Positions 12,025-12,481 of a DNA stretch of 32,000 nucleotides are shown here, one piece after another. The notes beneath the pieces are model-generated. The model worked only from the letters and a program-made list of their open reading frames with translations. It ran no database searches and was not told where the DNA came from. The position numbers were made by a program, and so were the translations under genes. Origin of the DNA: Chlamydiota bacterium (lineage in GTDB: Bacteria > Auribacterota > JACPWU01); NCBI GenBank assembly GCA_016196885.1, contig JACPWU010000021.1:51038-83037 (forward strand), written 5' to 3'. Position 1 is the first letter of the stretch, and each line of letters starts with the position of its first letter.

Positions 12025-12257
12025 CTTGCTAAGATCGTGTATTTAAAAGTGTGTCCTTTTATGGATGCGGGTGGCCCGACTGGGGGTCCCCCGCTGATCG
12101 CCAGCAGATGGAGAACATGGACCTCTCGTTACATTCAAAACCCAACCGACATCGACCCCACGGGGGCTATAACCTCTGTGCCGTCAGCGGGGGTGAGGAG
12201 GGACAGGACCCGCCTCCTCTTAAAAGGACACACTTTTAAATACAGCATCCTTGCTAA
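12025..12257. mobile_element. MITE-like 217-bp GC-rich palindromic element (12033-12249) with 8-bp direct repeats CTTGCTAA
   Basis: 24-bp perfect terminal inverted repeat, 12038-12061 with 12221-12244, extending to 29 bp with 2 mismatches. Inner helices gcgggt/acccgc and cccccgctga/tcagcggggg. Exact CTTGCTAA at 12025-12032 and 12250-12257 abuts both ends. Confidence 0.65.
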
Positions 12258-12317
12258 CGTCCCCTTAAAATTCTATCATTCATGAACAAAAGTCGTTGCT
12301 AAAGAGGGAGAAAGAAC

Positions 12318-12406
12318 TTTAAACCCAGAATTTGCAATAGGCCGCGGAATTCGACGCAAGATCTTGCTCTTGAGTTCTCGCGTCTATTGCAAAATCTGGG
12401 TTAAAA
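12318..12406. repeat. Long imperfect hairpin downstream of yidC
   Basis: 12318-12340 pairs with 12384-12406 (about 23 bp, 2 mismatches). The 43-nt interior contains the 12-bp palindrome gcaagatcttgc. Confidence 0.6.
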
Positions 12407-12481
12407 AGTAACCCTCCCATTCCCCCCTTACAAGCGAGTCCGGGTGCTCTGAAGAAACGTATCTCGAGAAAAAAAGGGGGT

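Follow-up and report, generated by a model that had tools for sequence, protein, structure and literature searches.

What is a 217-bp palindromic element, bounded on both sides by the same 8 bp, doing between yidC and a toxin-antitoxin pair: is it mobile DNA, a gene for a structured RNA, or an accident of local sequence? The element lies in what we call the window, the whole 32,000-nt stretch of DNA analyzed here, which corresponds to positions 51038-83037 of contig C30 in the host genome G000 (2.23 Mb, 66 contigs, 44% G+C). The host was compared with three genomes of the same family (G001-G003) and, more widely, within a set of 79 species genomes of the phylum. Both G001, whose proteins are only ~55% identical, and G002 (record CAZXEQ01) belong to a genus different from that of the host, and G003 is incomplete. 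Positions below are those of the window unless a contig is named.

The element occupies 12033-12249 and ends in terminal inverted repeats (TIRs) of 29 bp, 24 bp of which are perfect; the outer 5 bp (GATCG vs GATGC) contribute 2 mismatches and carry the arms to 12033 and 12249. A repeat search drew the arms slightly wider, at 12028-12061 and 12221-12254 (34 nt, 88% complementarity), that is, 5 bp into each flanking repeat. The features of the element are as follows:

12025-12032, no strand: target-site duplication, left copy, CTTGCTAA, 8 bp
12033-12061, plus strand: left TIR, GATCGTGTATTTAAAAGTGTGTCCTTTTA, 29 bp, AT-rich
12066-12214, minus strand: GC-rich structured core with covariation, in the orientation of covariance model R1
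12067-12072 and 12208-12213: closing helix of the core, GCGGGT/ACCCGC
12088-12097 and 12184-12193: main helix of the core, CCCCCGCTGA/TCAGCGGGGG
12156-12180, no strand: optional 25-nt insert m1 within the core, CCCCACGGGGGCTATAACCTCTGTG, delimited by comparison of copies
12221-12249, minus strand: right TIR, reverse complement GATGCTGTATTTAAAAGTGTGTCCTTTTA
12250-12257, no strand: target-site duplication, right copy, CTTGCTAA, 8 bp
Both termini: pattern GAT(C/G)NTGTATTTAAAAGTGTGTCC

The interior (12062-12220) has a G+C content of 63.5%, compared with 31% in the TIRs, 47-48% in the flanks, and 45% in the whole window. Either strand was predicted to fold into one long rod (-101.9 kcal/mol and z -5.8 for the plus strand, and -109.6 kcal/mol and z -8.0 for the minus strand), and for neither strand did any of 200 shuffles fold equally well. 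The element overlaps just two open reading frames (82 and 62 aa), both called mechanically, and the 82-aa frame had no match in Pfam; the element thus contains no transposase gene. A sequence-only reading of this DNA had described a 24-bp perfect inverted repeat extendable to 29 bp with 2 mismatches, an exact 8-bp duplication, a GC-rich interior with several helices, and a position just upstream of a toxin-antitoxin promoter. The coordinates of the inverted repeat were reproduced, CTTGCTAA directly abuts both ends of the element, the interior is richer in G+C than the flanks by the values given above, the helices GCGGGT/ACCCGC and CCCCCGCTGA/TCAGCGGGGG were both found, and a promoter-like site of a Phd-like/PIN_3 gene pair lies where the promoter had been placed.

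The surroundings of the element, all read on the minus strand, are ordered as follows:

14230-12482, minus strand: yidC
12417-12301, minus strand: a second, unrelated palindromic repeat
12249-12033, minus strand: the probable MITE
12006-11978, minus strand: promoter-like site, TTGACC, 17 nt, TAGACT
11955-11659, minus strand: Phd/YefM-like antitoxin
11704-11255, minus strand: PIN_3 toxin
11232-9823, minus strand: mnmE

The core of the window copy is sense to yidC, to the Phd-like/PIN_3 pair, and to mnmE. The promoter-like site lies 26 bp downstream of this copy, and, when the duplicated 8 bp are counted, 19 bp separate the insertion point from the -35 hexamer downstream of it. An independent Logan contig (SRR12113416), which has an identical antitoxin, shows this junction filled in the same way and breaks off within the TIR. 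The gene order in G002 is yidC, a VWA-like gene, and mnmE. No precise empty site was recovered for any copy of the element, and at this locus the relatives share only yidC (~55% protein identity).

Two further observations concern the DNA between the element and yidC. The duplicated motif recurs a third time in slightly altered form, as TCGTTGCTAA at 12293-12302, 45 bp past the right duplication. Ahead of it stands TCCCCTTAAAA, a sequence similar to the inner end of the right TIR (12215-12257 vs 12260-12302); the site may thus preserve an older end that has since decayed, or the similarity may have arisen by chance. The second palindrome (12301-12417, ~115 bp, arms at 12318-12340 and 12384-12406) separates the element from the 3' end of yidC. 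The host genome has one copy of it and G001 at least 7 copies with 87-100% identity, which, given the ~55% identity of the proteins, suggests recent horizontal spread or strong conservation.

The evidence for mobility comes from the other copies. The element matched ~51 places in the host genome, ~24 of them with TIRs, and the sister genus represented by G002 has ~35 copies. An automated search for the ends retrieved 15 TIR pairs from the host genome, 14 of which could be evaluated. Exact 8-bp flanking duplications were present in 11 of these 14, and one further pair showed a single mismatch, whereas the control with the next 8-mers outward gave 0 matches. The 11 duplicated 8-mers (TATCGCCA, CATAGAAT, CTTGCTAA, CGAAAATT, TGAACTGT, GGATGACT, ATAAACCG, GTTGAACC, GGGTAGAC, CATTGATC, and GAAAATAG) are all different and yield no consensus. 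One copy, at C61:21220-21275, consists of 56 bp comprising only the two TIRs, and it has its own 8-bp duplication, ATAAACCG; thus, the ends are the part that is recognized and are enough for transposition. The TIR 16-mer TAAAAGTGTGTCCTTT (at most 1 mismatch) occurred 42 and 39 times in G000 and G002, respectively, compared with 0 occurrences of the reversed control in both, and 0-2 times per genome across the 77 other genomes of the phylum, including 2 in G003. The copies in G002 are ~147 bp long, and one is flanked by the exact duplication CAAATTAA.

Members of the family are spread over more than 20 contigs, and their flanks are unrelated. Within the subfamily of the window copy, identity is 91-98%, with 98% between this copy and the one on C2, a module indel aside, and five contigs break inside family copies. 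The high identity and the contig breaks suggest recent amplification. The search for further copies, on which the sequence-only reading had staked its claim of a mobile element with a target-site duplication, came out in favor of that claim, as many copies exist with their own, differing 8-bp duplications. The element is small, devoid of a transposase gene, bounded by TIRs and by duplications of fixed length and variable sequence, and dispersed in many copies, as prokaryotic MITEs are. We conclude, with a probability of about 0.85, that the element at 12033-12249 represents a hitherto unnamed family of non-autonomous DNA transposons (MITEs), and that it is a composite containing a recurring core.

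The source of the transposase was sought in several ways. No TIR pairs spaced 0.7-5 kb apart were found in G000-G003. A scan of genome_contigs with the TIR 16-mer gave only chance matches besides G002 (CAZXEQ01), a scan of metagenome_contigs with a TIR 19-mer gave 41 chance matches, one 23-nt match being located in rpoA, and blastn of the TIR against plasmids gave only chance-level matches. Consequently, the full-length insertion sequence (IS) with the same termini for which the sequence-only reading had proposed a search was found in none of G000-G003, genome_contigs, metagenome_contigs, or plasmids. The compared assemblies are metagenome-assembled genomes (MAGs), and an IS could be missing from the assembly. 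Among transposase families, no IS256 transposase (PF00872, Transposase_mut) was detected in G000-G003, with control genomes responding to the same model; no IS1595 transposase (PF12762) was detected in these four genomes, and ISL3 transposases (PF01610) were likewise absent from them except for one fragment in G001.

Orphan MITEs are common, and a cognate IS is not strictly required. In the mechanism that we propose, a transposase supplied in trans would have bound the 29-bp AT-rich TIRs and made staggered cuts 8 bp apart in the target, the repair of which would have produced the duplication of CTTGCTAA. Judging solely by the 8-bp duplication and the TIRs, the enzyme would be of the DDE type. 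The element at this locus would be an orphan, either a fossil or one mobilized by an unassembled or foreign IS. The ends of this MITE family may resemble those of the IS256 family, while ISL3, IS1595, IS6, and IS66 are further IS families with 8-bp duplications. IS256-family elements generate duplications of 8-9 bp and have inverted repeats of ~25-40 bp beginning with G(a/g). The IS256 family is thus a possible source of the transposase, being akin in duplication length and TIR length, although PF00872 is absent from G000-G003 and public collections yielded no IS with these ends; ISL3, IS1595, IS6, and IS66 are possible alternative sources.

The composite nature of the element became apparent from its interior. 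Between the AT-rich ends lies a rod-like GC-rich hairpin core of ~149 nt, and the same core without the ends occurs 27 times in the host genome as a solo unit. In the orientation sense to its neighbors, the core consists of the closing helix GCGGGU/ACCCGC, a main helix of 12 pairs, a third helix, and a variable AU-rich tip, with a near-invariant asymmetric internal loop formed by CCUGUCCCUCCUCA opposite ACCCCCAGUCGGGCC. In alignment A1, which contains 32 consensus pairs, both sides had changed with pairing kept in 15 of the 32, and the main helix exists in at least 9 different complementary versions. Paired cells amounted to 97.6%, compared with 89% after shuffling and 32-48% when the partners were slid, and the covariation score was 0.319 vs 0.152, with none of 500 shuffles attaining 0.319. 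The wobble test counted 16 G:U pairs in the sense and 9 in the antisense orientation, with 93% of pairs being Watson-Crick.

Covariance model R1, built on this structure, retrieved 46, 37, and 11 copies in G000, G002, and G003, respectively, the G002 copies being mostly a shortened 81-nt form within MITEs, and only two weak matches elsewhere among the 79 phylum genomes. It matched the window copy at G000:C30:63103-63251 on the minus strand (95.5 bits, E 3e-18). An Rfam search with the element and five solo copies (E up to 1) gave no match, and the core pattern was not found in viral contigs. Solo cores showed a modest T enrichment after the closing helix (19, 14, 13, 11, 12, and 12 of 26 at positions +3 to +8). 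On the window copy, there was no terminator-like call and no U-run after the hairpin.

Comparison of the copies revealed mosaics of several modules, namely the ends, the core, the 25-nt m1, a ~75-nt m2, and differing tips. The window copy contains m1, which was found in some copies only, MITE-borne and solo alike. A stretch of 110 nt is 100% identical between the solo core on C34 and the MITE at C62:89739, the remaining halves of which differ, and the solo core on C31 matches the core of the MITE on C32 at 95% identity, with the homology stopping exactly at GCGGGT/ACCCGC. These two comparisons indicate that solo and MITE-borne cores exchange sequence and that the core is the unit of exchange. 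The mosaic copies show gene conversion between copies, and such conversion could spread paired changes without selection on each copy.

Some solo cores have peculiar borders. Several, including C34:15527-15716, C62:82959-83077, and C63:65836-66022 of the host genome, possess copy-specific AT-rich extensions of the closing helix of 4-16 bp (e.g., AAAATTTTATTTAGGT / ACCTAAATAAAATTTT), and it looks as if a palindrome already present at the site had received the core at its tip. At C12:14608-14705 and C65:10768-10920, the upstream open reading frame seems to enter the core 25-30 nt before its stop, and the C-terminal codons of that reading frame may there come from the solo core, as far as crude ORF calls indicate.

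The placement of the 27 solo cores in the host genome is far from uniform. The modeled strand coincided with the G-rich (leading) strand in all 27, at a local skew of 0.04-0.18 (absolute). Both neighbors were sense to the core in 22 cases and antisense in 1, 3 cores were in convergent contexts, and 1, whose right neighbor is missing, was left unclassed. Divergent spacers, which make up 16% of all spacers, contained none of the 27 (P = 0.008), and co-directional spacers on the C-rich strand, which make up 23% of the co-directional ones, contained no sense solo copies (P = 0.003). The core usually starts at most ~25 nt from the stop codon of the upstream gene, and 18-60 nt separate its end from the next start codon. 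The placement of MITE-borne copies is looser, as 14 of 19 lay on the G-rich strand and their contexts were sense (8), antisense (4), and divergent (6). No conserved target motif was found beside the solo cores beyond the closing helix. Solo cores are not orthologously placed between the genera: the spacer between an ispB-like gene and ligA contains a solo core in G002, and the orthologous 45-bp spacer in G000 is empty. The G002 core in this spacer is antisense to its genes and runs against the local skew.

The nucleotide composition of the host genome is itself unusual. Its GC skew is strong (0.1-0.18 absolute over 30-kb spans), and the G-rich strand holds 71% of the ORFs. The sense strands of intergenic regions are very poor in C, and the C-rich core stands out sharply from them.

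What might the core do? We infer, if only weakly, that it acts as a structured nucleic acid. Its most likely role, again put forward with little confidence, would be that of an RNA hairpin in the 3' or intercistronic parts of transcripts, serving as a REP/ERIC-like stabilizer, a processing site, or an attenuation site; the alternative would be a single-stranded-DNA hairpin tied to replication. A role in transcripts is favored by the sense orientation, the position behind stop codons, and the absence from promoter-only spacers, while the perfect agreement with skew and the near absence of wobble pairs mean that a single-stranded-DNA hairpin fits equally well. The near-invariant loop CCCUCCUC (sense) is complementary to the Shine-Dalgarno-like GAGGAGG, which hints that the core may take part in translating the flanking genes or in processing their mRNA. 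A broader proposal, which we hold tentatively and at somewhat below even odds, is that the core is a hitherto undescribed structured element maintained by selection, which spread without TIRs or duplications and was then captured and ferried by a minimal MITE. Selection would in that case have acted on RNA in leading-strand transcripts, in their 3' or intercistronic parts, or on a single-stranded-DNA hairpin at the replication fork.

The structure of the core also bears on the proposal that the whole element is a stand-alone small-RNA gene or a cis-regulatory RNA, for instance one that insulates yidC from the toxin-antitoxin pair or terminates transcription between them, with the flanking 8-mer being incidental. 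The very strong predicted folding of both strands would fit such a gene, as would a module with covarying helices and a bias for the sense strand. However, 11 of the 14 evaluable copies have exact 8-bp duplications that differ from copy to copy, and because each copy has its own, the 8-bp repeat is read as a footprint of transposition. The mixed contexts of the MITE copies, with 8 sense, 4 antisense, and 6 divergent, argue in the same direction, and so do the lack of an Rfam match and of a U-tract or terminator-like site on the window element. We therefore regard a stand-alone RNA gene as very improbable here. As its other possibility, the sequence-only reading had named a stable RNA or a transcriptional insulator, and the interior does belong to a module that conserves its structure.

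The host genome also encodes elements of the REP type. A GTAG-tagged REP hairpin, GTAGTCGCCCCATTTATGGGGC..., occurs in ~300 copies across the genome (e.g., C57:16520-16570), and a single RAYT-like Y1 gene was found at C7:8418-9419, between perfect 29-bp inverted repeats. These GTAG-tagged REPs are probably the substrate of that Y1 gene.

It could accordingly be supposed that the family, and above all its core, is of the REP/REPIN type or derived from IS200/IS605 (PATE-like), that it was moved by an HUH Y1 transposase, and that the TIR form is secondary; movement would then have taken place through single-stranded DNA at the replication fork. Solo cores without TIRs or duplications, long GC-rich hairpins with compensated arms, the same strand in 27 of 27 cases on the G-rich, lagging-template strand, almost purely Watson-Crick pairs, and the one Y1_Tnp gene encoded in the host genome are all in line with this origin. 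Nevertheless, the 29-bp inverted repeat that borders this Y1 gene is an unrelated one, and the ~300 GTAG-tagged REPs are its likelier substrate. Across genomes, the core does not follow the enzyme, as Y1_Tnp is missing from G002 despite its 37 or more cores, whereas the five Y1_Tnp genes of G001 are accompanied by no more than one weak core. The flanks of the solo cores share no conserved target tetranucleotide. The window copy, moreover, has TIRs and an 8-bp duplication, and HUH transposition makes no 8-bp duplication. Two specific candidates were rejected: a RAYT-driven REPIN, because no core-flanked Y1 gene and no co-occurrence of core and Y1 were found across G000-G002, and an IS200/IS605-derived PATE, because the end bears no conserved tetra- or pentanucleotide and the core is a single rod hairpin rather than two subterminal ones. 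An origin of this kind appears very improbable, slightly more so than an RNA gene.

That the palindrome and its flanking 8-mer are an immobile product of chance or local duplication is next to inconceivable, since the local recurrence of the motif suggested by the third near-copy TCGTTGCTAA 45 bp farther on is set against the family as a whole, with a TIR 16-mer found 42 times vs 0 in the control, duplications in 11 of 14 pairs vs 0, copies on more than 20 contigs with unrelated flanks, and a second genus that also has the family, all of which excludes a chance origin.

Taking the element to be a MITE, we compared it with known repeat systems. Correia and ERIC elements duplicate TA, whereas the sequence duplicated here is 8 bp long and arbitrary. 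In other respects, the prokaryotic MITEs exemplified by Correia/NEMIS in Neisseria and ERIC/IRU in enterobacteria (reviewed in PMC10969869 and PMC2229807) are alike: they are small, non-coding, and mostly intergenic, have TIRs and duplications, exist in tens of copies, and fold into long hairpins that can be co-transcribed with neighboring genes. MITEs are typically AT-rich (PMC10969869), whereas in this family only the ends are AT-rich and the cargo has 63% G+C. The present cargo also differs from Correia and ERIC elements in occurring solo, without TIRs, and with covarying helices, and no parent IS is known for it. A literature search returned general MITE reviews and nothing matching this family with 8-bp duplications.

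The solo core is most readily compared with REP/REPIN sequences and their RAYTs (Bertels and Rainey 2011, PMC3116915) and with GTAG- and CGTC-tagged REPs (PMC3733652). Both are GC-rich extragenic hairpins with compensated arms that are present in tens of copies, lack duplications, and lie at gene ends. However, a REPIN consists of two inverted REPs of 20-40 nt, whereas the core is one rod of ~120-190 nt in which asymmetric internal loops are conserved; it is devoid of GTAG and CGTC tags and is not associated with a RAYT. Modular mosaic repeats, such as BIMEs in E. coli and BOX, RUP, and SPRITE in S. pneumoniae (PMC3049150), resemble the family in that interchangeable modules are shuffled between copies and in that they occupy transcribed intergenic DNA. 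They have no sequence relationship to it, and the ends module of the present family differs in carrying a clear footprint of transposition.

As a MITE, the element is ordinary mobile DNA, which adds a new orphan family with 8-bp duplications, found in an uncultivated lineage where insertion sequences seem to be nearly absent. The family is worth masking before small-RNA genes or small ORFs are annotated. The core is the more useful point, as it combines compensated helices and invariant loops with 46 copies in 2.2 Mb, both free and transposon-borne. Should the core prove functional, for instance by protecting mRNA 3' ends, by serving in processing or attenuation, or through a link to replication, the MITE would lend itself to carrying a regulatory or structural module to new loci, and at the locus studied here it would have placed that module beside the promoter of a toxin-antitoxin pair.
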